A stretch of 64,000 bases of DNA from Rhodothermales bacterium (GCA_965223485.1 OZ244993.1:1207400-1271399); one strand, 5' to 3'; positions 1 to 57,726 are shown, numbered from the stretch's first letter. Notes: generated from the letters alone by a model not told the origin. Translations and numbers: made by a program.

Positions 1-786
1 ACCGGGGGCAAACCGGTGGCTATCACGAACTGTCTTAATTTTGGCAACCCGTACAAGCCGGAGGTCTACTGGGCCTTTACGGAGGCGGTTGGAGGCATGG
101 GCGACGCCTGCCGGACCTTCGACACGCCGGTGACAGGCGGCAATGTGTCCTTCTACAACGAAAATCCGGAAGGCGCCGTCTACCCTACCCCGACGATCGG
201 CATGCTGGGCATCGTGGAGGATGTCGAGACCGGCGTCGTTACTGTGCCGTTCCGGGAGGCCGGCGATGTGGTGTATCTGCTTAGCCCGGCAGACTGGGCG
301 CACCGGGAGGACATCAATGGTTCCGAGTATCTGGCGCGCCGGCACGGGCTGGTGCGGGGCGGCGCCCCGTATATGCTGCTGGAGGAAGAAGCGGCGGTGC
401 AGGAGGCGATGCTGCGCCTTGTCAAGGCGGGCCTCGTGCGCAGCGCGCACGACGTTTCCGACGGAGGACTGGCCGTGGCGCTGGCCGAGTGTGTGCTTCA
501 TACGGAAGCCCCTGGCGCGGAAATCGATCTGGCCGCACCGGGGATGAGACGGGACGCGGTGTTGTTCGGCGAGGCGCAATCCCGCATTGTGTTCAGTGCG
601 TCGGCGGAACGAACCGTCGAGATCGAACACGCCGTCGAGGCGGCCCCCGTTCGCCTTACGCGGCTGGGCGTTGTGCGCCCCGGAAATCTGACGATTCTTC
701 TGGACGGAGGGCCGGTCATTGACCTGCCCGCAGAAGAACTTTGCCGGCCGTACGAACGCGCCATCCCCGATTATATGAACCGGTAA
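1..786 (+). CDS. purL: phosphoribosylformylglycinamidine synthase subunit PurL, C-terminal part (5' end outside window)
   Basis: Reading frame is open to the window edge. AITNCLNFGNPYKPEVYW..TPVTGGNVSFYNE and AHDVSDGGLAVALAE are typical of PurL. Confidence 0.85.
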   Translation, partial: TGGKPVAITNCLNFGNPYKPEVYWAFTEAVGGMGDACRTFDTPVTGGNVSFYNENPEGAVYPTPTIGMLGIVEDVETGVVTVPFREAGDVVYLLSPADWAHREDINGSEYLARRHGLVRGGAPYMLLEEEAAVQEAMLRLVKAGLVRSAHDVSDGGLAVALAECVLHTEAPGAEIDLAAPGMRRDAVLFGEAQSRIVFSASAERTVEIEHAVEAAPVRLTRLGVVRPGNLTILLDGGPVIDLPAEELCRPYERAIPDYMNR

Positions 787-904
787 GCGCAGCGGCGGGA
801 CAGGGAAACCAACGTGCCCTTTTTCTGTTGTATGCTGTGCAATACGTCCCCGGTATTGCGTCGTCGAATGAGTCCTGATTTGCCTCAATTTCCGGAGAAA
901 CAAC

Positions 905-1246
905 ATGGATACGCATAGCCCGCTGACGGTTACGGATAGCAGTTTCAAGGAGGAAGTGCTCGATTCCGACGTGCCGGTGCTCGTGGACTTCTGGGCCGCC
1001 TGGTGCGGACCGTGCCGTATGATTGCGCCGGTGGTCGAGGAACTGGCCGGGGAATTCGCCGGACGCGCGAAGGTGGTCAAGATGGATGTCGATCACAATA
1101 CGGAAACGCCGATGCAGTACGGGATCCGGTCGATTCCGACCCTGCTGTTTTTCAAGGACGGGCAGGTTGCGGATCAACTGGTCGGGGTTTCTCCCAAAAA
1201 GGATCTGGTTGACCGGCTTGATGCGCTTGTTGCGCAAGCTGTCTGA
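905..1246 (+). CDS. trxA: thioredoxin
   Basis: 113 aa with the [13 protein letters not shown] active site and [13 protein letters not shown]. Confidence 0.95.
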
Positions 1247-1297
1247 CAGCCCTGCGCCTTTTTCCTTTTCCTGATCGCTTCGATCACTTTTTTCTCC

Positions 1298-2311
1298 ATG
1301 ACCGAGCGCGCCGCACCGGATATGTCCGCTTTCGACGGGATTGATTTCTCCGGGGCGGAACGCCGGAACGTTGTCATTGTCGGAACGGGACCCGCTGGAC
1401 TGACCGCCGCTCTGTATGCGGCCCGTGCGAATCTCGAACCGGTTGTGTTCCAGGGGCCCGAGCCCGGCGGCCAGTTGATGACCACGACGGACGTGGAGAA
1501 CTATCCGGGATTCCCCGATGGCGTGTTGGGGCCGGACATGATGCAACTGTTCGACGGGCAGGCAACCCGGTTCGGGGCCGATCTCCGCTACGGCACGGTG
1601 AACGCGGTGGATCTATCGCAGCGTCCGTTCCGGTTGCTCGTGGACGGCGAGACGCCCGTACTGGCGGAAACGGTTATCATATCTACGGGGGCTTCCGCAC
1701 GGTATCTGGGCCTCGAAAACGAGAAACGCCTGCTGGGGCGCGGCGTGTCGTCCTGTGCGACTTGTGACGGGGCGTTTTTCCGCAATGTGGTGGTGGCCGT
1801 CGCCGGGGGCGGCGACTCCGCCATGGAGGAGGCCCTGTTTCTGACCCGTTTTGCGTCGAAGGTGTACGTCATTCATCGCCGGGACAGCCTGCGCGCCTCG
1901 AAGATTATGCAGGAACGGGCGTTCGCAAACGAAAAGATCGAGTTTATCTGGAACACGGTGGTGGAGGATGTGCTGGGCGACGACGAGGTGACGGGCCTCG
2001 CCTTGCGCAACAGGGAAACGGGCAATGCCTCGGAACTGGCGGTGGGCGGATTTTTTGTGGCCATCGGGCATACGCCCAACACGCAAGTGTTCAAGGGGTG
2101 GCTCGATATGGATGCCCAGGAATATATCGTAACGGAAGGCAAATCCACGTATACGAATATTCCCGGCGTGTTCGCATGCGGCGATGCGCAGGATCATGTG
2201 TACCGGCAGGCGGTCACAGCGGCCGGCACAGGGTGTATGGCGGCGATCGATGCGGAGCGCTGGTTTGCGGAACATGCCGAAACTTCCGGAGACGGGCAGA
2301 AGCATGCGTAG
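1298..2311 (+). CDS. trxB: thioredoxin-disulfide reductase
   Basis: 337 aa with GTGPAGLTAALYAAR FAD-binding motif, CATCDG redox site, GGGDSAMEEA NADPH motif and FACGD. Confidence 0.95.
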   Translation: MTERAAPDMSAFDGIDFSGAERRNVVIVGTGPAGLTAALYAARANLEPVVFQGPEPGGQLMTTTDVENYPGFPDGVLGPDMMQLFDGQATRFGADLRYGTVNAVDLSQRPFRLLVDGETPVLAETVIISTGASARYLGLENEKRLLGRGVSSCATCDGAFFRNVVVAVAGGGDSAMEEALFLTRFASKVYVIHRRDSLRASKIMQERAFANEKIEFIWNTVVEDVLGDDEVTGLALRNRETGNASELAVGGFFVAIGHTPNTQVFKGWLDMDAQEYIVTEGKSTYTNIPGVFACGDAQDHVYRQAVTAAGTGCMAAIDAERWFAEHAETSGDGQKHA

Positions 2312-3053
2312 GATGTCCTGGGCACGACCGGATTATTTAGCGCCGGGAAGGCTCGTTCTCGGTGCATTGTGCTGCGGTTTGCTGTTTTCGTTCGGCTGCA
2401 CAAGCAATCCGACGCCTGGGGAAGAGGCGCTTGCGCCGGCATCCGGTGTTGAAGAAGCTGCCGGCGCGGGCGAGACGCCCGGAACGACGATGGATGCGAG
2501 CGCCGATGGCGCCGCGGGAACGTCTTCCGCAGACCGTTATGCGGACGAAAGCCGGTCGGTCTCCGGGAAAATAAGCGATGCTTCGCTGGCCGCAAAGGTG
2601 CACCTGGCGCTCGTGGATACGCGCGATCTGCGGGCGCACCGGTTCGACCCGGAGGCGGTAGCCGGGCGCGTTATCCTGCACGGTCATGTGGCTACCTGGG
2701 CGCAGCGCGAGCGCGCTGCCGCGGTGGCGGCGGGCGTGCCGGGTGTGGTATCCGTCTCGAACGAACTCACCTCGACGGAGGAGAAACCGACGGGTCTTGC
2801 AGAAGCATCCGGGCTTTCCGGGGATGCGCCGGGCGGCGCCTCAGGCGCGTTGTCGGATGGCGGAAACGGGTCGTTCGGAGAGGGCGCTTCGCCCGGAGGC
2901 GGTGCGGAAGGACCGGTGTATCACACCGTGACGCGGGGCGAAAGTCTTTGGACCATCTCCCGGACATACGGCGTGCGCATCGACCAGATCAGGGCCATGA
3001 ACGGGTTGACGTCCGACACGGTCAAGTCGGGGCAGCGGTTGCGGGTCCGCTGA
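2304..3053 (+). CDS. BON-domain and LysM-domain lipoprotein
   Basis: ATG at 2304 overlaps the trxB stop. Lipobox-like LLFSFGCTS, a BON-like segment (RVILHGHVATWAQRERAAAVAAGVPGVVSVSNEL), and a C-terminal LysM (YHTVTRGESLWTISRTYGVRIDQIRAMNGL). Confidence 0.75.
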   Translation: MRRMSWARPDYLAPGRLVLGALCCGLLFSFGCTSNPTPGEEALAPASGVEEAAGAGETPGTTMDASADGAAGTSSADRYADESRSVSGKISDASLAAKVHLALVDTRDLRAHRFDPEAVAGRVILHGHVATWAQRERAAAVAAGVPGVVSVSNELTSTEEKPTGLAEASGLSGDAPGGASGALSDGGNGSFGEGASPGGGAEGPVYHTVTRGESLWTISRTYGVRIDQIRAMNGLTSDTVKSGQRLRVR

Positions 3054-3098
3054 TCGGGACCGGCGAAGCGGATACGCGCACCCGTGCGCCCTGCATTT

Positions 3099-3962
3099 CT
3101 ATGTGCGGACAAGATTCCGCAGCACGAACCACACGTTCTCTTTCCGCTCGCGCAGCCGTCGGGCGAAATACGGCGCCCATTGCGTACCGAAGGGTACGTA
3201 GACTCTCATGCCGTACCCCTCGTTTACGATCTGTTCCTGGGTCTGCGGGCGTATGCCGTAGAGCATCTGAAATTCGAACCGGTCCCGGTCTATGCCGCGA
3301 TTCGCGACAAAGATTTTCGTGGCGGAAATCAGCCGGTCGTCGTGCGTGGCGATGCCGGGATACCGCCCGTGTGCGATGAGTTCGTGCGCGCAGGCCATGA
3401 AGTGCTCGCGGATGATGTCCATATTGCGCCAGGCGATCTCCGAAGGTTCCTTGTAGGCGCCCTTGCACAGCCGGACCTGCGCCTTCAGGGCGCACATGCG
3501 TTCCACGTCGCGTTCCGTGCGCTTCAGGTACGCTTGCAGCACGATCCCCACGTGATCGGGGTACTCGGGGAAGGTTTCTTCAAAGAGGGATATCGTGGAG
3601 GCCGTCGTATCGCTGCCTTCCATGTCGAGGCGGATGAACACATTGCACTCTTTTGCCGCCGCAAGCAGCAGGTGCAGGTTTTGCAGGCAGTAGTCTTCGT
3701 CGATTTTCTGCCCGATCATCGAGAGTTTGATGGATATGCCGGCCTGCATGGCGCGCTGGTCGCGTTCCTTGGCAATGATGCGGACGAGACGTATGTAGGC
3801 GTCCCGGCTCGTCTCGGCGACCTTGCGTTTTGTGACGTGTTCACCCAGCAGGTCGAGAGTGACGCTCAGGCCCTTGTGGTTCAGGGCGCGAATAACGGGG
3901 AGCGCTTCCTGGAATGATTCTCCCGCGACGAAGCGGCGTGCCAGCAAATAGGGAAGACGCAT
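3099..3962 (-). CDS. proline dehydrogenase family protein (monofunctional)
   Basis: 287 aa with RFVAGESFQEALPVIRALNHKGLSVTLDLLGE, IVLQAYLKRTERD and VRLCKGAYKEP, typical of PRODH TIM barrels. Confidence 0.8.
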   Translation of the reverse strand: MRLPYLLARRFVAGESFQEALPVIRALNHKGLSVTLDLLGEHVTKRKVAETSRDAYIRLVRIIAKERDQRAMQAGISIKLSMIGQKIDEDYCLQNLHLLLAAAKECNVFIRLDMEGSDTTASTISLFEETFPEYPDHVGIVLQAYLKRTERDVERMCALKAQVRLCKGAYKEPSEIAWRNMDIIREHFMACAHELIAHGRYPGIATHDDRLISATKIFVANRGIDRDRFEFQMLYGIRPQTQEQIVNEGYGMRVYVPFGTQWAPYFARRLRERKENVWFVLRNLVRT

Positions 3963-4187
3963 CGGACGTAGCGTGCACTATGGGAGTGCGTGGTGTAAAT
4001 ACGGTACGCAGATGATCGGGGGAAACGGGGCCGCGCCGTTCATTTCGAGGCGCCGCGCATACATTCGTGCCTATTGCAAACGGTGTGGGCTCCTATTTCC
4101 CGACCGGTCGTTCAATGCTGTGTGCTTTAACGTTCGGGGCGGATAGGGATCCGGGTTTGCACGTCCAATCATACAAGATTCGGAAAA

Positions 4188-4829
4188 ATGGATGTAAGCG
4201 GGCTGAGACGCGAATATCGCGGCGATGGCTTCGATGCGGTCGGTAACGATCCGATGGCGTTGTTCAGGGTATGGTTTGAGGAGGTGGTGCAGGCCGCGCA
4301 CGCAAAGAGCCGCGATCCGAACGCGATGTCGCTCGGTACGGTCGATGCCCAGGGCCGTCCTTCCGGACGCATTGTACTTCTGAAGGGGTTCGACCGGCAG
4401 GGCTTCGTATTCTACACGAATTACGGCAGCCGCAAGGCGCGCGACCTGGAGGCGAACCCGTGGGCGTCGTTGACGTTCTGGTGGGACGAACTGGACCGGC
4501 AGGTGCGTGTCGAGGGGCGGGCGGAGCGGACGGACCGGGCTACCTCGGAGGCGTATTTCGCATCGAGGCCGCGAGAGAGTCAGTTGGCGGCGGCGGCTTC
4601 CGCGCAGAGTCGTCCTCTTGCAGACCGGGCAACGCTGCTGGCCGCCGTGGAGGCGGCGCGGAAGGAATACGAAGGGCGCGACGTACCCTGCCCCGAAGAG
4701 TGGGGCGGGTATCTCCTGCGGCCTCACGCGCTGGAGTTCTGGCAAGGCCGTCCGAATCGCCTGCATGATCGCCTGGCGTACCGGCTCGACGAGGCGGACG
4801 CGTGGAAGGTGGAGCGGCTGGGGCCGTGA
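4188..4829 (+). CDS. pdxH: pyridoxamine 5'-phosphate oxidase
   Basis: 213 aa with GRIVLLKGFD..GFVFYTNYGSRKARDLEANPWASLTFWW..RQVRVEG and WGGYLLRPHALEFWQGRPNRLHDR. Confidence 0.9.
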   Translation: MDVSGLRREYRGDGFDAVGNDPMALFRVWFEEVVQAAHAKSRDPNAMSLGTVDAQGRPSGRIVLLKGFDRQGFVFYTNYGSRKARDLEANPWASLTFWWDELDRQVRVEGRAERTDRATSEAYFASRPRESQLAAAASAQSRPLADRATLLAAVEAARKEYEGRDVPCPEEWGGYLLRPHALEFWQGRPNRLHDRLAYRLDEADAWKVERLGP

Positions 4830-4874
4830 GAAGGTAGTCTGCCGGGTTGGTGTATAGCCCTGTGGCGGGCATTT

Positions 4875-5393
4875 TCACCGGTAGGCCCGGTCCGTGTACT
4901 CGATTACGGTGGCCCGGTCGATAACGCGCCAGGAAGGCGGTCCCAGCGCCCCGCTTTTGCTTCGGCGGAACGTAGCCCGGAGATAGATTTCCTTTTTCTC
5001 CGGCGCTGCCCCGGCGAAGCTGAACGATCCCCAGCGGAAAATCCAGAAAGCCGAGTCCGGTCGTACGGGGAAACGCCGCGATAGCATTTCTGCAAGGTGC
5101 GGCGCATCGTCAAGCGTGGAGCGGCCCCGGTTCTCGGCGAGCTCGTCGAGGATCACGGTCATGGGGCGCGCAGCCTTTGGCGCCGAGCGGTAGATGCGCA
5201 CGCGACAGGTCGAAACGTTGCGGTATCCCCGCCAACTGAACGTGGTGTCGGCAATCATCTGTCCGGCGGCGGGCGTTGCGACGGCAAGCGTTAGCAGGGC
5301 GGCAACGGGCAGCGCCGACCGTAGCGACCGGACGGCGAACGAGCGCAGGGTCGTGCGCGCCAGCGGGGCAATGATGTAAAGGGGCGTCCTCAT
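4875..5393 (-). CDS. hypothetical secreted protein
   Basis: 172-aa ORF with an N-terminal hydrophobic signal-like segment (ALPVAALLTLAVATPAAGQ). No recognisable motif. Confidence 0.45.
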   Translation of the reverse strand: MRTPLYIIAPLARTTLRSFAVRSLRSALPVAALLTLAVATPAAGQMIADTTFSWRGYRNVSTCRVRIYRSAPKAARPMTVILDELAENRGRSTLDDAPHLAEMLSRRFPVRPDSAFWIFRWGSFSFAGAAPEKKEIYLRATFRRSKSGALGPPSWRVIDRATVIEYTDRAYR

Positions 5394-5510
5394 GCGCGTA
5401 TAGACACGCTGGATGGGGACGTGTAACCTGGTGGGGGCGGAAAACTTTCAGGGGGGAGGAATTGTGCTGGCTGCGGGTCTGTGCAGAATGCGTGCAGGCG
5501 CCATTGTGCA

Positions 5511-7309: not shown

Positions 7310-7345
7310 GCCGGTCGGCTGCCGGTTTCCGTGGAAACACCCTCA

Positions 7346-7362
7346 ATGTTTGCGCGCAAACA
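7346..7362. repeat. palindrome-containing motif ATGTTTGCGCGCAAACA, copy 1 of 3
   Basis: The flanks also match the copy at 53892 (GAAACACSCTCAATGTTTGCGCGC.AACA.TAAG). The copy at 52385 matches in inverted orientation. Confidence 0.7.
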
Positions 7363-14674: not shown

Positions 14675-14888
14675 GTCAGGGCTAAGTGTGGCGTGCCAGA
14701 GCAGAATCGGTACCGGCTGCTCAGTGTAACCTGATTCCGGATGCCTGATTCATTGATTTCTGTTCAAACTTATGCTATTCTTGCGGCATGACATGTCTTG
14801 GAGTTGACTGCGATTACCATAACTTGCGCTACTTCGAGATGACCCCTGAATGTGCGCAGACCTTCATCATGAAAGGAGGAGGTACTCT

Positions 14889-17137: not shown

Positions 17138-18004
17138 CGGAATCTGTATTTTCCAGTTCGACAAATTGCCCTGAAACTGCGGGAATCGTGAGAAAAACTT
17201 CGCACCCGTTGTTAGGAAGAAGTGTGTCAGCGTGACAATTTCTCCATCCGTCGTTGCATAGAACAGAGCATAGCGAACATCGCAGTGCCGGATATGCTGG
17301 CCACTAATCTTCGGCACATCAAGGGCTTCTTCGCTATCCGGACACACAAGGCCGAGGTCTATCGTCGGCGATGTCTGTAATTTCACTTCAAGAAGCTGAT
17401 GTAGTATATCCGGGAATTGCCCATCGTCCCGGTAATCGGCGTAGCCCAAACGCTGGCATACCAACCGGTGCAAGGCTGCCCCCCGGTTGCGTTCCTGGTC
17501 ATGGCCTGCATCTGGAAAGCTTTCGCCGATCAGGGCCTGTAACCCTTCAAAAATATGCTCGATTGGCAATAGTTTTCCTGCTTCAGGATAGCTGACCGGA
17601 TCCGATGTAATAGATTCAAGGTTGGTTTTGGGCCTGACAACGTGTCGGAGACGCTCCGTATCCTCTGTAGCAATTAGCTCCACGCTGCTTTCGCTAGGAA
17701 TGATCCGGGCCTGATATTTATGAGTTAGTGCGCCCGTGGTATCAAATTGCGCCAGGACATTTCCAGTGACGACTTTCACCTTAGTGATGGTGTCATTCTT
17801 GCCAAGTCGGATGATCACGTAGCGCCGTACAAGGGTAATCTCCTCATTCCAAATCTGTAAATTGTTGGATTTCTGGATGTAGGTGTCAAAAAGTTGGCCC
17901 GGAAACCGAGGGTGTGTTTTCTTGAAACTTGACGGCGCCGGATAACCGAGTGCTTGACAAATCCGTTCCTTGTACGAATCCGGTCCATTGTCGTTAGTTA
18001 CCAT
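17111..18004 (-). CDS. type II restriction endonuclease (PD-ExK)
   Basis: 297 aa with FPDILHQLLEVKLQ, a PD..(E)xK pattern. It converges on and overlaps the methyltransferase by 27 nt, and its start overlaps the C-protein gene. Confidence 0.65.
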   Translation of the reverse strand: MVTNDNGPDSYKERICQALGYPAPSSFKKTHPRFPGQLFDTYIQKSNNLQIWNEEITLVRRYVIIRLGKNDTITKVKVVTGNVLAQFDTTGALTHKYQARIIPSESSVELIATEDTERLRHVVRPKTNLESITSDPVSYPEAGKLLPIEHIFEGLQALIGESFPDAGHDQERNRGAALHRLVCQRLGYADYRDDGQFPDILHQLLEVKLQTSPTIDLGLVCPDSEEALDVPKISGQHIRHCDVRYALFYATTDGEIVTLTHFFLTTGAKFFSRFPQFQGNLSNWKIQIPLPADFFDD

Positions 18005-50389: not shown

Positions 50390-51987
50390 TGTACGCCTTT
50401 CTGATCGAACTGCGACTCTATTACCGGAACAGGATGGCCCTGATCTACGGCTATCTTTTCCCGCTGATCTTTCTGGTTGCCTTCCTTGTGTTGTACCGGC
50501 ACGAACCGGCGCCGCTCGTGAACCACATGGGGGAACTCCTTACCGTGACGGCCCTTGGCGGGGCCTGCTTCGGCCTGCCCACCTCCATGGTGGGCGAGCG
50601 GGAGCGGGGAGTCTGGCGCCGGTACCGGGCGACGCCCGTTTCCACGTGGCGCCTGGTGCTGACGACGGTTGCGGCCCGGTACCTGGTCCTGCTTTCCGCC
50701 GCGCTTCTTCAGATTGTGCCGGCCATGCTTCTTGGCATGCCGTTTCCTGAGCATATTGCCGGGCTGTGGGTCGCCTTCACGTTCGTGTCTTTCGCCTTTC
50801 TGGGGCTGGGCCTTGTCATCGCCATGCTCGCCGACACGGTGCCCGCCGTACAGGCGCTGGGGCAGTCCATTTTCCTGCCGATGCTGATCATTGGCGGGGT
50901 GGCGGTGCGTCTCGAAAGCCTGCCCGAATGGGCGCAGCACCTGTCCGCCTTTTTTCCCGGTCGCTATGCGGTCGAGGCGATACAGGTTACCGTGAACGGA
51001 AGCGGACTGGGCGCCGCGGGCTTCAGCTTGCTGGCCCTCCTTCTGATTGGCGCCGCCGGCTGCCTTGCCTCGGCGAAGATGTTTCGATGGGATACGCGGG
51101 AGCGAGGCGGTACGCGGCGCGGCAAGGTATGGGCGGGCGCTGCCCTCGCGGCATGGGTGCTGGTCGGCGTGCTGGCGGAAGGCACGGGCCGCGCTCTGCC
51201 GCATGGACGATTGCCTGCCGACGGCGTATCGTCGCTGACCGATGCGCTTCGTGCCCCTGGTGCAGAAACGGACAACCCCTCTAACGTGTATGGGACGGAA
51301 GCGGATTCGGTTACGTTCGCGGAGAACGTTGCGGATTCTGCCGGTGTCGGGGCCTTGTCGGCGGATTCGGCGCCGGAACCGTCAGACCCGCAAAGCGACG
51401 CAGATACTCCGGCCGGGGAAACCGCCGATGCCGTATCCGAAGAGGTTGTCGAGGCGCCACCGCCTCCCCCGCCCATCGACTACCCCGATTCCTGGGAAGA
51501 AGTGACGATGGAGGACATCGACCGGGACATCCGGTTCGATGCGCTTCCCTACGATCAGGGCCTGGAGGCCCCGGTGGCCGCGCTGGACGAGCCCGTGTAT
51601 CCGGATATCGAGGATACGATACAATGCGTCCTCGACGATCTGGAGGTATGGCCGCCGGCCTGGACGGCGGACCCTGTGCAGCGGGCGCGCAATGTGCTGT
51701 TCGTGGCGGCGGTCCCGGACATGTACCAGATGAGCGGGATCGAGCGGTGGGTACCGCACGCCGTATTCCAGCATCTGGCGAATGCGCATCCCGAAGAGGA
51801 ATTGATCAAGGTGCTCTACTGGATCGCCGCAAATCCCTACGAGGGGGAAGTTTTCGCCGCAAGTCGACTTACGGATATGTGCCTGCGGCTCGGCGGCCCC
51901 GACGACACTGCGATGCTACAGCAGCGGACCGGGTGGTACGCGGCCAAGCTACTGGGCCGGATCACCGGGCATATTGAGGTGAGGTAG
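50386..51987 (+). CDS. ABC-2 type permease fused to a ~280-aa C-terminal domain of unknown function
   Basis: ATGA start/stop overlap with the ATPase gene. About 6 TM segments (aa 1-250), then an acidic low-complexity linker and a conserved-looking tail (..VLYWIAANPYEGEVF..GRITGHIEVR). Confidence 0.75.
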   Translation: MMYAFLIELRLYYRNRMALIYGYLFPLIFLVAFLVLYRHEPAPLVNHMGELLTVTALGGACFGLPTSMVGERERGVWRRYRATPVSTWRLVLTTVAARYLVLLSAALLQIVPAMLLGMPFPEHIAGLWVAFTFVSFAFLGLGLVIAMLADTVPAVQALGQSIFLPMLIIGGVAVRLESLPEWAQHLSAFFPGRYAVEAIQVTVNGSGLGAAGFSLLALLLIGAAGCLASAKMFRWDTRERGGTRRGKVWAGAALAAWVLVGVLAEGTGRALPHGRLPADGVSSLTDALRAPGAETDNPSNVYGTEADSVTFAENVADSAGVGALSADSAPEPSDPQSDADTPAGETADAVSEEVVEAPPPPPPIDYPDSWEEVTMEDIDRDIRFDALPYDQGLEAPVAALDEPVYPDIEDTIQCVLDDLEVWPPAWTADPVQRARNVLFVAAVPDMYQMSGIERWVPHAVFQHLANAHPEEELIKVLYWIAANPYEGEVFAASRLTDMCLRLGGPDDTAMLQQRTGWYAAKLLGRITGHIEVR

Positions 51988-52250
51988 GCAATTTTGTCCG
52001 GCGCGTTTCGTTTATTTAAGCCTGTTCCGCCTCATTTTTTCCGGCACGCTCCATCTGATGCACCTCCCAAATGAGCACACCGTTTTCTTTTTGGGGACTA
52101 CAGGTCCGCCTGCTATCCGTTCGGAGGGCCCTGCTTTTGGCCTTGGCCGGGTTGTTGGCCGCGCCTGGCGTGACCTATGCCGAGACGCATGGCGTGCCTG
52201 TACTGGCCAACCGCCTTAAGGGGCCTGACGTTATAGTGGAGCCCGGTGAT
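51745..52250 (+). repeat. left copy of a diverged tandem duplication (3' end of the permease gene + intergenic region + 5' end of the protease gene)
   Basis: Aligns with 54219-55015 at roughly 90-95% identity, apart from a 291-bp in-frame deletion equivalent to 54640-54930. Confidence 0.9.
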
Positions 52251-52277
52251 TGTAAAACGACAGCAAGTTGGCACTGA
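52071..52277 (+). pseudogene. truncated duplicate of the S8 protease 5' end, running into the element's TIR
   Basis: MSTPFSFWGLQVRLL..GVTYAETHGVPVLANRL..VEPGD, then TIR-encoded residues and a stop. Confidence 0.85.
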
Positions 52278-52356
52278 AACGACACGAATTTGGCACTAAA
52301 TAACTGAGAGATCACAGTTAGCCTTCTAAATGGCCAGGGTTATGCCGTTTTGTCAC
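52251..52356 (+). repeat. left terminal inverted repeat
   Basis: TGTAAAACGACAGCAAGTTGGCACTGAAACGACACGAATTTGGCACTAAATAACTGAG..TATGCCGTTTTGTCAC. Confidence 0.85.
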
Positions 52357-52384
52357 GCTGCCCGGCCTCATTGAAGCCCCTTAG

Positions 52385-52402
52385 ATGTTTGCACGCAAAC
52401 AT
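52385..52402. repeat. palindrome motif ATGTTTGCACGCAAACAT, copy 2 (inverted flank orientation)
   Basis: With the copy at 53892 it forms an inner inverted-repeat pair around the transposase and small gene. Confidence 0.7.
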
Positions 52403-52483
52403 CGGCTGCACGTATCTGGTGCTCGATGCGGAGTTCAGTAATTTTCACTCCGACTATCTGATAAAGGGCAAGTAGCGGGTACG

Positions 52484-52517
52484 AAAAAAGCCCCGCCAGA
52501 AACGAATCCGGCGGGGC
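52484..52517 (-). terminator. rho-independent terminator after the small membrane protein gene
   Basis: On the minus strand: stem GCCCCGCC / GGCGGGGC (8 bp) followed by TTTTTT, ~45 nt after the stop at 52563. Confidence 0.6.
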
Positions 52518-52562
52518 CTTCCGCATGACACGGCTGAACGGTACGAGAACGCCCTGTCGATG

Positions 52563-52943
52563 CTACTCCTGGCTTCGTTTCTCACGCCGACGCTGCACCT
52601 TGCATTGGATATACCCGATTGAGCCCAGCGCCACCGACCCGTAAACGTTCCACAGCGGAGGCACGTCCATAACGAGCCCGACGGTCATAAAGTACTGCGT
52701 CATCTTTATACGCTCCGAGCCGGTTTGCCTGAAGCATCCGGGCCGCTCGGCCTCGCCCTCCGAAATAACCGGCGCATCAAGCTCCGTCGGCACCACGGCA
52801 GGTAGAGGAAGTTTTTCCAGGGCGAGCACCTCTACCGCCGCAGGCTTTTCGGGCGTCTTGTCGTCATCCGTGGCTGCGGCAGGCGCCGCCACGGACAAGG
52901 CGAGGATGAAAAGGAGTGTGTGTTTCATCGTGGTTTGCCTCAC
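52563..52943 (-). CDS. small secreted/membrane-anchored hypothetical protein (passenger gene of the element)
   Basis: Signal peptide MKHTLLFILALSVAAPAAA, a C-terminal hydrophobic segment and a basic tail. Confidence 0.55.
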   Translation of the reverse strand: MRQTTMKHTLLFILALSVAAPAAATDDDKTPEKPAAVEVLALEKLPLPAVVPTELDAPVISEGEAERPGCFRQTGSERIKMTQYFMTVGLVMDVPPLWNVYGSVALGSIGYIQCKVQRRREKRSQE

Positions 52944-53044
52944 AACGTTTTGTTAATCACAACGGGCGACGCATCCCGGGGGTCAGGGGCAGGACTTCCC
53001 TATATTAGTACATCCTAAATAAAAAAGTCAAGGACGACCCTGAT

Positions 53045-53804
53045 TTATAAAATAAGGTCATTGTACATGAGGCGTTTGCCATCGAGCCCTAGGAGGATTT
53101 TCGCCATCTTGTCAAGCGTTGACAGCTTGCGCAGGTTATGGCGCCCGGCGAACTCGTTGATGTAGCGGTGCAGGTGCTTGCGGCTCATGTGGTGGTAGGC
53201 GCCTTTGTACGCCCGCTTGAGCAGGGCCCAGAAGCTCTCTATGCCGTTGGTGTGGGCGTCTCCCTTCACGTACTGGTACGCGGAGTGGTTTGTAGCGGCC
53301 CGCCAGCGGCTTGTAGGAAACGTTATCGTCGGTATAGAGCGTAGCGCCCGGTTTTGCCCGACGAGAAACAAAAGCGGAAAAGTGCAGCGCATCGACCTCT
53401 ACAGGCCCGCGAAAAATGTCCACATCGCCGGCGAAAAACTCACGCAGGCGCTGCAAGAAAAACCACGCGGATTTTTGCGTCATCCCGAGCGCCTTCGCGA
53501 GCATAGGCGAGGATATGCCTTTGGCCCGCGTGGAGGCCAGGTAGATACCGATGGCCCATTGCCGCAAGGATAGATTGCTGTCCTCCATTACCGTGCCCTT
53601 GCGCACGGAGAAGTATCCGCGGCAGTCGCGGCAGCGGTACGGCATCGAGCGGTGCGAGGGTGTCCGGGAGAAATTCATCGAGCCGCACGTAGGGCACGCC
53701 GGCCCAACGGGCCAGCGCACACTCTCCATCCACCGCCGGGAAAACTCCTCGTCCCGAAACAAGCGGAACAAAGCTAAAATGGTTACTCCTCCTGTGGCAA
53801 CCAT
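53045..53804 (-). pseudogene. IS1595-family (ISXO2-like) transposase, internally deleted and frameshifted
   Basis: The N-terminal zinc ribbon CPTCGS..YRCRDCRGYFSVRKGT and HTH lie in ORF 53136..53804. The C-terminal DDE end ([40 protein letters not shown]) lies in a different frame (53045..53392). The central catalytic part is largely missing. Confidence 0.8.
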
Positions 53805-53891
53805 TGTATATAATTCCCATTAAAATAGGGGATGGTCCTGGCTTTGCGAACAAGCGGAGTATATCCCTTATAGGGATCCGAAACACGCTCA

Positions 53892-53909
53892 ATGTTTGCG
53901 CGCCAACAT
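53892..53909. repeat. palindrome motif ATGTTTGCGCGCCAACAT, copy 3
   Basis: Its flanks match the copy at 7346. Confidence 0.7.
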
Positions 53910-54110
53910 AAGATGCCGGTGTGCGCGCCAGACCCTTGAACGGCTTATGCGGTGTAGCTATGCGCGAGACGCTCTACGCCGACGTCGATCTGACCGACGC
54001 AGTCATGGATATGGTAAAGCAGGGTCATTATTCGGGCGTCACGGTCGCGATTTTCGGGCCGACTCATCCGAGCAATCCGAAGCCGGTCGATCACTACCTG
54101 CCACACCGGA

Positions 54111-54218
54111 GTGACAAAACGGCATAGCATTGGTCATTTGCAAGGCTAACTGTTTTCCGCCTCAGTTATTTAGTGCCAGGCCCGTGTCGTTTTAGTGCCA
54201 ATTTGCTGTCGTTTTACA
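54111..54218 (-). repeat. right terminal inverted repeat
   Basis: Its reverse complement aligns with 52251-52356. Confidence 0.85.
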
Positions 54219-55015
54219 CGGTGGGTGCCGCACGCCGTATTCCAGCATCTGGCGAATGCGCATCCCGAAGAGGAATTGATCAAGGTGCTCTACTGGATCG
54301 CCGCAAATCCCCACGAGGGGGAAGTTTTCGCCGCAAGTCGACTTACGGACCTGTGCCTGCAGATCGGCGGTCCCGACGACATTTTAATGCTCCAGCAGCG
54401 GACCGGGTGGTACGCGGCCAAGCTACTGGGCCGGATCACCGGGCATATTGAGGTGAGGTAGGCAATTTTGTCTGGCGCGTTTCGTTTATTTAAGCCTGTT
54501 CCGCCTCATTTTTTCCGGCACGCTCCATCTCATGCACCTCCCAAATGAGCACACCGTTTTCTTTTTGGGGACTACAGGCCCGCCTGCTTTACGTTCGGAG
54601 GGCCCTGCTTTTGGCCCTGACCGGGTTCCTGGCCGCGCCTTTGGCCCTGGCCTAGGAGCAGCCGGCCTATGAGCCCCACGTCGTCGTCGTGCAGTTTGAG
54701 CCGGGCATTGTCATCGGGGAAGGAGTTGCCAAGGCAGGCTTGCAGGCTTTTGACCGCATGGCTTCCGCATTCGGCGTGCACACGATCGAGCGCGTGTTTC
54801 CGTTTCTGGATCACGTGCAGCCCACGCCCGAAACCGCGCGGAATCTCGCAGCGCTTCGCCGCACCTACTATGTCCGGTACAGCGCCGACGATGATCCCGG
54901 AGACGTAGCGAAGGCCCTGATGGACGTGCCTGGCGTGACCTATGCCGAGACGCATGCCGTGCCCGTACTGGCCAGCCGCCTTATGGGGTCTGACGTTATA
55001 GTGGAGCCCGATGAT
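54219..55015 (+). repeat. right copy of the tandem duplication
   Basis: It starts exactly at the element's right end with a duplicate of permease codons (ORF 54195..54461 ends ..GRITGHIEVR*), then the intergenic region and the protease 5' end. Confidence 0.9.
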
Positions 55016-57481
55016 TCTTTATTCAGTGCCCAGACGTATCTCAGGCATATGCGTCTGCCCGAAGCCTGGGACATCGTCAAGGGAGAAGACGGCGCCCCGC
55101 CGGTGGTTATCGCCATAACGGATTTGGGCGGAGATTGGCGACACGAGGATCTTCTTGCGAATGTTTGGACCAATGCGAATGAGATTCCAGGCAACGGTAT
55201 AGACGACGATAACAACGGTTTCATTGACGATGTGCACGGGGTGAATCTACTCAATAGAGATGACGCCGACAACGATCCGTATACTCCGGGGGGCATCCCG
55301 CATGGCACACACGTCGCGGGCGCAGCCAGTGCCGTGACCGACAATAGCGCCGGTGTTGCCGGAGCGGCGTGGAATGCCCAGCTCATGCATATTAGTGGCC
55401 TCTACGCAGGCATCCTGTATGCCGCCGCCAACGGCGCCGACATCATAAATGCAAGTTGGGGTACGATAGGGTTCATCGGGGGGGGTAGAACTGAAGCGCA
55501 AGTCCTGGACCTCGCAACGGAGATGGGCGCCCTTGTGGTAACGTCAGCAGGCAATGACGGCAGGAATATCGATGACTTCGCATACTATCCTTCCGGTCAT
55601 CCTCGCGTTCTTACTGTCGGCGCCACGGCTAAAGATTCACGCATAAAGGCGGGATTTTCGAATTACGGCAAGGGAGTCGATGTCTTTGCCCCTGGCGTAG
55701 ACATCATTACTACAGTACCGGACGGCGAATACACGCTTTCCGTAGACGGCACGTCATACGCATCTCCTCTGGTAAGTGGTGTGGCCGCATTGGTGAAGAC
55801 CCGATATCCGGACATTTCGCCGGATGCATTGCGGGAGCAAATTCGTCTTTCGAGCGAGAATATGGATGCGGAGAATCCGGGGTATGCAGGACTGCTGGGA
55901 CGCGGGTATGTCAATGCCGAGGCGGCCCTGCAAACGCCTGTGCTTCCAGCCATTCGTGTTAAGCGGTCGTCATGGACCGATGCCGCCGGCGACCGCCAGA
56001 TTGCTTCAGGAGAGGAGGTAACGATCACGGCTACGGTAGTCAATTACCTGGCCGACGCCCGGCAGCTGAGCGTAGGTCTGACGGCGGCCGAATCGTACCC
56101 GTATATAGATATAACAACGGCCGAGCAAACGGTAGGCCGCCTGGCCCGTGGCGATTCCACCGAGGTTACGTTTCGGTTCACGGTAGCCCCCGATGCGCCC
56201 GTAAATCGCAGGGTGCGATTCTATACCCGTATTCGGGACGGAGCATTCGTAGACGAGCCCGACCAATTCGCTTTTGGCATAAACAGGAGGCTCGATATCG
56301 TGCACGAGGCGCTCAGCGCACTATATGTCTCCACCGGCGGCGACAACTGGACAAACAATTCCGGCTGGGACATCACCAGGGTGCCTGCGCCGAGCGAATT
56401 GTACAACTGGTTTGGGATATCCGTGGCACAGGGCTGGGTAACTTTTCTCCGATTGGACAACAACAACCTTTCCGGTACGCTACCGACCGAACTGGGCAAT
56501 CTCGCGCAGTTGCAAGAGCTGGATCTGTGGCGCAATACCCTGACGGGGTCGATCCCGACCGAGCTGGGCAACCTCTCGCAATTGCAACGGCTGAATCTGT
56601 ACGACAATTCACTTTCCGGGGCGATTCCCGGCGAATTGGGCAATCTCTCGAAATTGCAACAGCTGGATCTGACGGGTAATTCGCTTACCGGGGCGATCCC
56701 CGGCGAATTCGGCAATCTCTCCGAACTGCAAGAGCTGAATCTGTCGCGCAACGCCTTGACGGGCAGGCTGCCGAGGAGTTTTATGCAGTTGGCGAATCTG
56801 CAGCAACTGTCTTTTGGCGGCCAGGACCTCTGCGCGCCAGCGGATGATGCGTTCCAGGCATGGCTCGGCAGCATCCTGATAACAAGTGGTCCTACCTGTA
56901 GTGGAATCCATTTTGCAGACAACGTGCCCGACCAATCTTTTGCGCACGCGCAGCCCATTGCCCCACTCGTCTTGCCCGAAGCTATTGGGGGCGCATCGCC
57001 GATTGACTATACGTTGACGCCCGCACTGCCGGAAGCATTGGCCTTTGACAAAGCGATGCGCACTATCAGCGGGACGCCGACGGTAGTCACGCCGGCCACA
57101 CCCTATACGTACAAGGCCACCGATGCGGACGGATCCACTGACAGCCTGACCTTTAGCATCGAGGTGATTTTTCCGGTCAGTGCTGAGGATGAATCGTTGC
57201 CGCAAGCGTTAGTTTTGCACGGCAACTATCCCAATCCCTTCCGGCATTCCACACGTCTGATGATTGATCTTCCGTGGCCCGCCCGTGTGACGGTTGAGGT
57301 GATGGATGTGGTGGGCCGTCGTGTATTTACAGTCCCTTCGGTTGATTTGGCGCCCGGATGGCAACGCGGCATAGACCTGAGTGGAGCTTCGCTGTCCTCG
57401 GGGCTATACCTGTACCGGGTGCATGCGTCATCGCCACAAGGCAGTGCCGTGCACGTGGGGCGCTTCGTGCGTATCCGATAA
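54689..57481 (+). CDS. S8 subtilisin-like serine protease with LRR array, Ig-like domain and T9SS C-terminal domain. The signal-peptide exon (54545-54652) is cut off by an in-frame TAG at 54653
   Basis: Triad contexts AITDLGGDW, HGTHVAGAAS and GTSYASPLVSGVAAL. Plant-type LRRs L.G.IP.ELGNLS.LQ.L.L. T9SS tail LHGNYPNPFRHSTRLMIDLP..SGLYLYRVHA. Confidence 0.8.
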   Translation: MQFEPGIVIGEGVAKAGLQAFDRMASAFGVHTIERVFPFLDHVQPTPETARNLAALRRTYYVRYSADDDPGDVAKALMDVPGVTYAETHAVPVLASRLMGSDVIVEPDDSLFSAQTYLRHMRLPEAWDIVKGEDGAPPVVIAITDLGGDWRHEDLLANVWTNANEIPGNGIDDDNNGFIDDVHGVNLLNRDDADNDPYTPGGIPHGTHVAGAASAVTDNSAGVAGAAWNAQLMHISGLYAGILYAAANGADIINASWGTIGFIGGGRTEAQVLDLATEMGALVVTSAGNDGRNIDDFAYYPSGHPRVLTVGATAKDSRIKAGFSNYGKGVDVFAPGVDIITTVPDGEYTLSVDGTSYASPLVSGVAALVKTRYPDISPDALREQIRLSSENMDAENPGYAGLLGRGYVNAEAALQTPVLPAIRVKRSSWTDAAGDRQIASGEEVTITATVVNYLADARQLSVGLTAAESYPYIDITTAEQTVGRLARGDSTEVTFRFTVAPDAPVNRRVRFYTRIRDGAFVDEPDQFAFGINRRLDIVHEALSALYVSTGGDNWTNNSGWDITRVPAPSELYNWFGISVAQGWVTFLRLDNNNLSGTLPTELGNLAQLQELDLWRNTLTGSIPTELGNLSQLQRLNLYDNSLSGAIPGELGNLSKLQQLDLTGNSLTGAIPGEFGNLSELQELNLSRNALTGRLPRSFMQLANLQQLSFGGQDLCAPADDAFQAWLGSILITSGPTCSGIHFADNVPDQSFAHAQPIAPLVLPEAIGGASPIDYTLTPALPEALAFDKAMRTISGTPTVVTPATPYTYKATDADGSTDSLTFSIEVIFPVSAEDESLPQALVLHGNYPNPFRHSTRLMIDLPWPARVTVEVMDVVGRRVFTVPSVDLAPGWQRGIDLSGASLSSGLYLYRVHASSPQGSAVHVGRFVRIR

Positions 57482-57511
57482 AGATCCGTATCGGGGCTAT
57501 GCGGATATAGA

Positions 57512-57582
57512 TACGCGGCCAAACTGCGGGGCCGGATCACCGGGCATATTGAGGTGGAATAGGATTCCTCGTCCGGTGCGTT
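57512..57582 (+). repeat. third copy of the ~71-nt permease 3'-end/terminus segment
   Basis: TACGCGGCCAARCT.C.GGGCCGGATCACCGGGCATATTGAGGTG..TAGG....GTCCGG.GCGTT also occurs at 51937-52007 and 54411-54481. Confidence 0.8.
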
Positions 57583-57726
57583 GAGCGGTTCCGCGAGGTC
57601 TGTTGGCTGTATGTGCCGTTTTCTGCGTCGCCTGTCCGGAAATCCGTTCCCCAAAAATGATATTTTAGAACTCCCTACATTCCTGACAAGAGATACCCCT
57701 TTTTCGGGACCTGCCCGCATAATGAC

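Follow-up and report, generated by a model that had tools for sequence, protein, structure and literature searches.

In a 64,000-nucleotide stretch of DNA from a Rhodothermales bacterium (GCA_965223485.1, OZ244993.1:1207400-1271399; hereafter the window), the boundary between a permease gene and a protease gene is present twice, in direct copies that differ by several percent and are separated by a single insertion sequence. How did one element come to occupy the join of a duplication, and does the difference between the copies tell us how old the event is? The first-pass annotation of this DNA answered that two copies of an element at different sites had recombined unequally, and that the event was not recent.

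Architecture of the locus

Self-BLAST and a repeat search confirmed a direct, diverged tandem duplication whose join coincides exactly with a mobile element, and the limits proposed in the first-pass annotation were correct to within 1 nt (Table 1). Positions 51745-52166 match 54219-54640 over 422 nt without a gap (95.0% identity, 21 mismatches), and positions 52153-52251 match 54918-55016 over 99 nt (90.9%), both blocks in the same orientation. A chance repeat is ruled out (E = 0, and the identical structure recurs in independent assemblies). The element is the sole joint between the two copies, and its left flank is indeed the 5' part of the protease and its right flank the 3' part of the permease, as had been described. 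The copies are of unequal length: an in-frame stretch of 291 bp (97 codons) of the protease pro-region is missing from the left one and retained in the right one, and the deletion junction falls within an imperfect 11-nt repeat (TGGCCGCGCCT / TGGACGTGCCT) around 52153-52166. The outer borders are clean. Upstream, the permease runs on past 51745, and downstream the protease runs on past 55016; both stretches are colinear with relatives, and no further copy or remnant of the element was found at 51745, at 55016 or elsewhere in the window.

Table 1. Features of the duplicated permease-protease locus (positions counted from the first nucleotide of the window)
Feature	Position	Strand	Evidence or content
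ABC-2 type permease gene, 533 aa	50386..51987	+	Pfam PF01061, 2e-19
Left copy, 506 nt	51745..52250	+	Permease 3' end (51745-51987), intergenic region, protease start
Left-copy protease stub	ATG 52071	+	Signal peptide, then 291-bp deletion; cut off by the element
Defunct IS1595-family insertion sequence, 1,968 bp	52251..54218	-	Terminal inverted repeats and Pfam
Passenger ORF, 121 aa	52563..52928	-	N-terminal signal-peptide-like segment
Broken transposase	53045..53804	-	Two overlapping ORFs
Transposase ORF, C-terminal part of DDE	53045-53392	-	tblastn
Transposase ORF, Zn ribbon and DDE start	53136-53804	-	Pfam/tblastn
Right copy, 798 nt	54219..55016	+	Orphan permease 3' fragment (54219-54461), intergenic region, protease start (ATG 54545)
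Secreted subtilisin-like protease gene	54545..57481	+	S8, LRRs, He_PIG, weak T9SS C-terminal sorting domain (Pfam, NCBIfam)
Third permease 3'-end remnant, older	57512..57582	+	82%; directly after the protease gene (repeat search)

The permease gene is intact, with its last 243 nt inside the left copy, and its product has the same length as the orthologues P0121, P0253 and others. It bears a C-terminal extension of about 250 aa for which family searches returned no match. Look-ups of the exact proteins of the window's permease and sulfatase likewise gave no match in the protein collection. The protease stub of the left copy is a pseudogene. The first-pass annotation had the right copy continue into the full protease gene, which holds for the extent of the gene and not for its integrity: an in-frame TAG (54653-54655) interrupts it just after the signal peptide. 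This codon is read through in four other duplication-bearing contigs and in all relatives aligned there, CAG being seen at the position in L018, L001-L003, L019, L020 and L021, and the protease gene calls in L027, L028 and L029 are 986-1004 aa. The third permease remnant comprises the last ~50 nt of the permease coding sequence, the stop codon and ~20 nt, and a permease remnant follows the protease in L002, L003 and L020 also. The 291-bp deletion, the TAG in the protease and the dead transposase described below had all been overlooked in the first-pass annotation.

The element at the join

The element shares with the IS1595 family an N-terminal Zn ribbon (PF12760, 5e-7), an ISXO2-like DDE domain (PF12762, 5e-15, profile positions 100-153 only) and terminal inverted repeats, and it is assigned to that family on these grounds. 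A passenger ORF is carried by some groups of the family too. The inverted repeats (52251-52356 and 54111-54218) are imperfect, being 90% complementary over the outer 58 nt and 84% over about 106 nt, with two 22-nt subrepeats in each arm. The TGTAAAACGACAGC termini with their subrepeats are unlike those of the closest intact homologues compared; the closest intact transposases, P0010 and P0012 (59-62% identity), sit in elements with different ends. The first base of the element is T52251, and a T is conserved in related termini.

The element differs from the family in its transposase and in having no target-site duplication. When aligned by tblastn with the intact homologues P0004 and P0010 (311-313 aa), the transposase lacks about 48 residues right after VEVD and carries a frameshift near residue 227; its identity to intact homologues of this length is 50-63%. 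It is dead, and L018 has a 222-aa fragment of it with 100% identity. The sequences on either side of the element (left CCGGTGAT, right CGGTGGGT) match at only 4 of 8 positions in register. There is thus no 8-bp target-site duplication, as one would expect of an element whose ends belong to two separate ancestral loci. A clean 8-bp target duplication (AAAAAAAT) does flank a related IS1595-family element in L029.

Neither the 121-aa passenger ORF nor a 68-aa ORF has a family match in Pfam or NCBIfam. The exact passenger protein was found on six contigs; the five that are long enough for context place it at the duplication locus, and the sixth, of 902 bp, lies wholly within the element. The window holds one copy of the element. 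For copies elsewhere, the plasmid collection gave one irrelevant 106-nt match, two scans of metagenome contigs with terminus patterns gave no matches, and exact-protein look-ups gave none beyond the duplication locus.

The locus in other strains and relatives

Both junctions are base-identical in the window and in contigs L018, L027, L028 and L029, and L022 has the same left junction in a contig that ends inside the element. The 291-bp deletion is present in L018 and L022 as well, and in L027, L028 and L029 the same 99-nt block adjoins the element. The structure is known from assemblies, at least two besides that of the window and with different strain backgrounds; the supporting contigs comprise the circular 3.39-Mb contig L028 (43x), another at 29x and three at only 5-7x coverage. 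The data support a duplication older than the divergence of at least five of the haplotypes sampled.

The first-pass annotation proposed two arrangements to look for in relatives. One of them, the unduplicated locus, was found in ten relatives (flanks 93-95% identical, or more distant); in L001-L003, L019-L021, L023 and L024 the permease is followed by a spacer of 83 nt or longer and then by the protease. In the ten single-copy relatives, the points corresponding to 51745 in the permease (x) and 55016 in the protease (y) lie about 800 bp apart on a continuous permease-protease stretch, which we take as the ancestral state. The other, an element at x only or at y only, was present in no contig or relative examined. 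No hemi-flanked or nested form and no reciprocal deletion was seen among the six element-bearing contigs and about 20 related loci, a small sample for an event that is old relative to the strains.

In L019/L023, remnants of element ends are found 9 nt past the protease stop codon and at a further breakpoint. A two-step replicative model starting from an element just downstream of the protease was rejected, as the remnant that L019 and L023 have there is in the opposite orientation to that needed. There is a slight chance that the duplication is ancient, older than the split from L019, and has collapsed in the relatives.

Divergence between the copies

That the copies differ by several percent is correct, but the age that the first-pass annotation derived from this does not follow. 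In five genomes, the distance between left and right copies is 11, 19, 21, 25 and 33 of 422 nt, while the elements of those strains differ by 0-3 of 1,968 nt. Because the distance varies to this extent among strains with near-identical elements, the divergence of the copies is no measure of time. At 19 of the 21 differences in the window, the state of the right copy also occurs in other lineages, and only two right-copy states are private; at 15 of the 21 the right copy carries the allele of L020. Ten of the differences are clustered in 43 nt (54350-54392).

The same contrast is found between strains, where pairwise substitutions amount to 0-0.2% in the element, 0-0.4% in the protease body and 1.9-6.9% in the first 422 nt of the right copy. 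Between L027 and L028, for example, there are 3 differences in 2,318 nt of the ABC/permease region, none in the element and 28 in 422 nt of the right copy. Among near-clonal strains, variation over the initial ~600-700 bp of the right copy exceeds that in the element or in the remainder of the protease by 10-60x, a mosaicism that consensus polishing in a strain mixture could inflate. The left-right differences stem from gene conversion and homologous imports rather than from decay in place, and both conversion and allelic imports are concentrated in the right copy. A foreign origin of the whole right copy together with the protease was considered and rejected: measured against each relative, the protease body has diverged ~2x as far as the flanks, a ratio that stays constant, and it therefore looks native. 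A sliding-window profile was too noisy to locate the tract ends.

Origin of the duplication

We consider it probable that the locus is a genuine unflanked, IS-bridged tandem duplication, which arose once when the element joined two loci and which later became mosaic by recombination, not through age. The left end of the element is joined to the protease at y and its right end to the permease at x, 797 bp upstream. The x-y segment lies on both sides of the element because the element ends join y and x, and both genes keep one intact copy because no element stands at the outer borders. The permease ends in the left copy and the protease starts in the right copy, with the redundant halves as junk, and the left stub would later have lost its 291 bp by slippage between the 11-nt repeats. 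Two routes of formation may be proposed from the architecture and by analogy with the study of E. coli and Acinetobacter discussed below. One is transposition between sister chromosomes, either replicative or with ends taken from two sisters; the other is recombination within the element between one allele that had it at x and another that had it at y. An exchange between two element copies of a single genome is, we infer, not the origin. Since its formation the structure has either spread or been retained within a sub-lineage of an uncultured Rhodothermales species, the members of which are ~98% identical, and the copies have come to differ by patchy conversion between them and by imports from single-copy relatives, concentrated in the ~600-700 bp to the right of the element.

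The reading of the first-pass annotation, namely unequal homologous recombination between element copies at x and y that left one copy at the junction, followed by long divergence in place, seems unlikely to us. The flanks of the element do come from two different loci, the repeats are direct, and the end remnants in L019/L023 indicate that the element family was active around the locus. However, within one genome such an exchange predicts the order element-copy-element-copy-element, and the outer elements are absent; with clean borders and a single copy in 64 kb, the model is not supported in this form. It also requires that an element known from one locus only inserted twice in the same orientation, neither insertion being seen singly in a relative, and divergence in place is contradicted by the shared alleles and the variable left-right distances. 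The version in which recombination took place between strains, with the element at x in one allele and at y in the other, yields exactly this product and would explain the differing alleles. The two-site model survives only as recombination between different alleles or strains.

A second alternative, to which we give only a small chance, is homology-facilitated illegitimate recombination. The element would have inserted at y, killing the protease, and element-free DNA of a relative would have been integrated by a homologous crossover in the protease and an illegitimate join by microhomology at CGGTG beside the right end of the element, restoring the protease and giving rise to the duplication. 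CGGTG does occur directly to the right of the element and 2 nt to its left, but it is 1 nt out of the 8-bp register if T52251 is part of the element, which every related terminus indicates; with that base in the element, 4 of 8 positions remain in register, and reading CGGTG as a target duplication or as microhomology is weakened. The y-site allele CGGTGATT is that of the left copies and of L019/L020, and the left stub is a pseudogene, as this alternative would have it. The right copy holds alleles of other lineages, which later imports explain equally well, while the protease body has the native divergence described above, and for an illegitimate join to hit the exact boundary of the element is itself improbable.

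An assembly artefact, in which the element served as a false bridge between two strains that each had it at a different site, or across a collapsed repeat, is hardly credible and is largely refuted: the source of the window is probably a metagenome-assembled genome, the copies differ about as much as strains do and L022 breaks inside the element, but the single-site insertions required are in no contig, and identical junctions stand in four other contigs of at least two other assemblies, the 43x circular and the 29x contigs among them.

Comparison with known systems

An unflanked, IS-bridged origin agrees with a recent classification of IS-associated arrays into flanked, hemi-flanked and unflanked, in which unequal crossover between two IS copies gives the flanked architecture IS-copy-IS-copy-IS and unflanked arrays leave the edge genes intact (Yelin & Kishony 2026, PMC13423834). 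Our locus is of the unflanked type, with element ends at separate loci, direct repeats and no outer IS. It shares with the 'locus-joining IS' of that study one IS that joins two ancestrally separate loci with direct copies on both sides, intact edge genes, the possibility of scarless collapse and a short duplication (PMC13423834). The cases described there arose de novo in laboratory E. coli and A. baumannii as multi-kb amplifications under selection, mostly with active IS1, whereas here the duplication is 0.5-0.8 kb, contains no complete gene, is bridged by a dead IS1595-family element and has the status of a fixed polymorphism in an uncultured natural lineage, with copies that have since become mosaic. 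With the canonical IS-flanked duplication our locus has in common an IS at the junction of a direct duplication, but the IS at both outer borders that defines that type is absent.

A more distant parallel is the maize element Ac, where the transposon reportedly ends up at the duplication junction. In the maize study, alternative transposition (reversed-ends or sister-chromatid) gives de novo tandem direct duplications and reciprocal deletions, and non-allelic homologous recombination is not the cause (PMC3744419). This is a route without a second element copy at the outer borders; Ac is a eukaryotic hAT element, and the likeness to an IS1595-family element is by analogy only.

Significance

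The excess variation in the first ~600-700 bp of the right copy raises the question of whether the truncated left copy may be a silent donor cassette that, by repeated gene conversion involving it, foreign alleles and the expressed right copy, diversifies the promoter, signal peptide and pro-region of the secreted T9SS protease. We give this very little credence; if it were true, the duplication would be maintained as a variation-generating device and would not be neutral debris. The rearrangement is small and probably neutral, and it is an ordinary member of a kind already known. It does carry a caution, in that divergence between copies cannot date a duplication where gene conversion and homologous imports are frequent. 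As a natural-population example, in uncultured Rhodothermales, of an unflanked type so far known in detail chiefly from laboratory-evolved E. coli and Acinetobacter, the locus shows that an IS-bridged structure can outlive its transposase, and that it can persist across strains because neither neighbouring gene is disrupted.

Layout of the duplicated region

The locus consists of two copies of one segment (permease 3' end, intergenic region and protease 5' start), joined solely by an IS1595-family insertion sequence. Self-BLAST of the region and a repeat search bore out, almost to the base, the layout proposed in the first-pass annotation, a tandem duplication with a mobile element at its join. 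The element has protease 5' sequence on its left and permease 3' sequence on its right, the ancestral loci that it joins are 797 bp apart, and no element lies at the outer borders of the duplication. The 8 nt on each side of the element (CCGGTGAT / CGGTGGGT) form no target duplication. The difference in length between the copies had been overlooked: a deletion of 291 bp has removed exactly 97 codons of the protease pro-region from the left copy, with its junction inside an imperfect 11-nt repeat (TGGCCGCGCCT / TGGACGTGCCT).

Features of the locus in window coordinates; substitution ranges are pairwise among the window and contigs L018, L027 and L028
Feature	Position	Description	Substitutions
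ABC ATPase and permease			0.1-1.7%
Left copy	51745-52250	506 nt	0.2-2.2%
Element	52251-54218	1,968 bp	0-0.2% (0/1,968 among L018, L027 and L028; 3 vs window)
Right copy	54219-55016	798 nt	
Right copy, first 422 nt	54219-54640	95.0% identical, gapless, to 51745-52166	1.9-6.9%
Right copy, next 277 nt			0.7-4.0%
Right copy, 99-nt block	54918-55016	90.9% identical to 52153-52251	0%
Protease body			0-0.4%
Palindromic motif in element	52385-52402; 53892-53909	near both ends	
Close copy of motif	7334-7362	intergenic spacer	
Protease start codon	54545	ATG	
In-frame stop codon	54653-54655	TAG	
Protease LRR region	56483-56751	72-nt tandem array, 3.7 copies, 77% matches	
Protease-sulfatase spacer	57482-57726		
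Third permease 3' remnant	57512-57582	last ~50-70 nt of gene, with stop codon	
L018 breakpoint	49427	homology begins	
L019 synteny breakpoint	47793	equivalent position	
Second element in L029	~52063-52070	equivalent position	

The element

The element is bounded by imperfect inverted repeats, which are 90% complementary over their outer 58 nt and align at 84% over about 106 nt; a pair of 22-nt subrepeats lies within each of them. Its minus strand encodes an IS1595-family transposase with a Zn ribbon (PF12760) and an ISXO2-like DDE domain (PF12762). When compared with intact homologues of 311-313 aa, this protein lacks about 48 residues right after the VEVD motif and is frameshifted near residue 227. 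The element, a degenerate representative of its family, cannot move by itself. Its passenger ORF (121 aa) begins with a signal-peptide-like segment and gave no match in the family search, and no further element copies were found within the 64-kb window. A palindromic motif of the element, ATGTTTGC(N)CGCAAACAT, has a close copy in the window 45 kb away, and in the single-copy relative L019 copies of about 100 nt of the surrounding element segment lie beside element-like termini (1163-1283 and 17342-17463). The motif may serve in regulation or binding, or these copies may be MITE-like derivatives.

Occurrence in related contigs

Exact matches to the 222-aa transposase fragment and to the passenger protein were found on six further contigs. 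The element lies at the duplication locus in five (L018, L022, L027, L028 and L029), which share about 98% identity with the window across some 10 kb; the sixth, L032, is a piece of 902 bp from inside the element. The full structure is present in L018 (7x), L027 (29x, 285 kb), L028 (circular, 3.39 Mb, 43x) and L029 (5x), while L022 has the left junction and stops inside the element. Since both junctions in the four complete contigs are identical to those of the window, an assembly artefact is ruled out for practical purposes and a single origin is indicated.

The upstream context of L018 differs from that of the window. Homology begins abruptly just upstream of or inside the ABC ATPase gene start, before which L018 has SEC-C, rve-type transposase and ParB-like genes and the window has sulfatases; this is another strain-specific breakpoint adjoining the locus. 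L029 (reverse complement, 438-5506) has a second IS1595-family element of 5.07 kb in the spacer of its left copy. The transposase of this second element is intact (312 aa), its cargo is similar to an EcoRI-type methylase and a GmrSD/HNH nuclease, and the target duplication at its insertion site, AAAAAAAT, is a clean 8 bp. The unrelated metagenome contig L026 has the same inverted repeat, GGGAATTATATAC….

The permease search returned relatives in uncultured Rhodothermales genomes only. The first-pass annotation had suggested looking in relatives for the unduplicated arrangement, or for the element at either single site. Ten relatives (L001-L003, L019, L020/L021, L023, L024) have the former, a single, element-free copy of permease, short spacer and protease with flanks 93-95% identical or lower, and none carries the latter. 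The protease is missing from L004, L006, L007 and L011, where the permease runs directly into the downstream sulfatase, and also from L005 and L008, where about 5.5 kb of other DNA separates the two genes. The 95%-identical single-copy relatives also contain element ends from this family, truncated and 84-91% identical (L019, 14559-14836 and 7301-7397; L023, 5611-5890). One such end lies 9 nt past the protease stop and the second end in L019 is at a synteny breakpoint; the two termini in L019 point inward and bracket the sulfatase-ABC-permease-protease block.

Divergence between the copies

L027 and L028 differ at 3/2,318 nt in the ABC/permease genes and nowhere in the element, but at 28/422 nt in the right copy. 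Within genomes, the left and right copies differ at 11 (L027), 19 (L029), 21 (window), 25 (L018) and 33 (L028) of 422 nt. Ten of the 21 differences in the window fall in 54350-54392; at 15 of these 21 positions its right copy matches L020, and only 2 right-copy states are private. The protein view agrees with the nucleotide view, as the L020 lineage has, as its functional allele (P0243), the orphan permease tail of the right copy (…DLCLQIGGPDDILML…). There are also concerted sites within genomes, for example CATATT in both window copies versus CATATC in both L018 copies, and the left copy of L029 has a spacer type otherwise found in the right copies of L018 and L028. The differences are patches swapped between copies and imports from single-copy relatives rather than in-place decay. 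Therefore, the divergence of several percent, from which the duplication had been judged not recent, gives no date. It can be said that the structure is older than the common ancestor of five sampled haplotypes, an ancestor that is recent, judged by the element's own divergence.

The protease gene and its surroundings

The right-hand protease, previously described as full, has an overlooked in-frame stop codon immediately past the signal-peptide cleavage motif (ALA|*EQ). The codon at this site is CAG in L018, L001-L003, L019, L020 and L021, and the gene calls of L027, L028 and L029 (986-1004 aa) read through it. The window strain has a fresh pseudogene, or a protease restarted without its signal peptide, or a sequencing error at the TAG base. 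The protease is split near its LRR array into ORFs of 687-691 aa and 232 aa in L018 and L019, owing either to frameshifting associated with the repeats or to assembly error at low coverage, and is a single ORF in L020, L023, L024, L027 and L028.

A third, older permease 3' remnant, also missed earlier, lies just past the protease stop. Such remnants follow the protease in L002 (~14742-14789), L003 (14729-14779) and L020 (14709-14760) as well, so that direct repeats of the permease 3' end lie on both sides of the entire protease cassette. Taken with the relatives in which the cassette is missing (L004, L006, L007, L011) or a different insert takes its place (L005, L008), the permease 3' end looks like an older hotspot of gain and loss. 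The protease-sulfatase spacer is by far the part that diverges most between the window and L018 (18% substitutions and 86 indel columns, against ~2% around it).

Origin and significance

The rearrangement belongs to a known class, the unflanked IS-bridged duplications. [quoted passage not shown] Here, likewise, one element joins two loci with element-free outer borders, and the defining feature of the flanked class is absent. We infer that the element mediated the joining, which may have occurred by transposition between sisters, or by crossing over, within the element, of an allele bearing it at the permease site with one bearing it at the protease site. The latter retains part of the unequal recombination between two element copies proposed earlier; the outer IS copies of its canonical flanked form are missing. 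The redundant protease stub also lost its 291 bp and the transposase was inactivated, each either before or after the duplication. Neither an intermediate nor a reciprocal product is present in the contigs and related loci compared. A homology-facilitated illegitimate join at a CGGTG shared beside the element, restoring the protease, is possible but weak, since the CGGTG copies are shifted by 1 nt from the expected register. The protease body, moreover, looks native: whichever relative is compared, it diverges at a constant ~2x the level of the flanks.

The locus is a new, natural, long-lived unflanked IS-bridged duplication, found in a lineage that is uncultured. The duplication is small, includes no complete gene and is probably neutral. 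Its most interesting by-product concerns method: recombination is strongly focused on the right copy, a hotspot, and therefore copy divergence is no clock.
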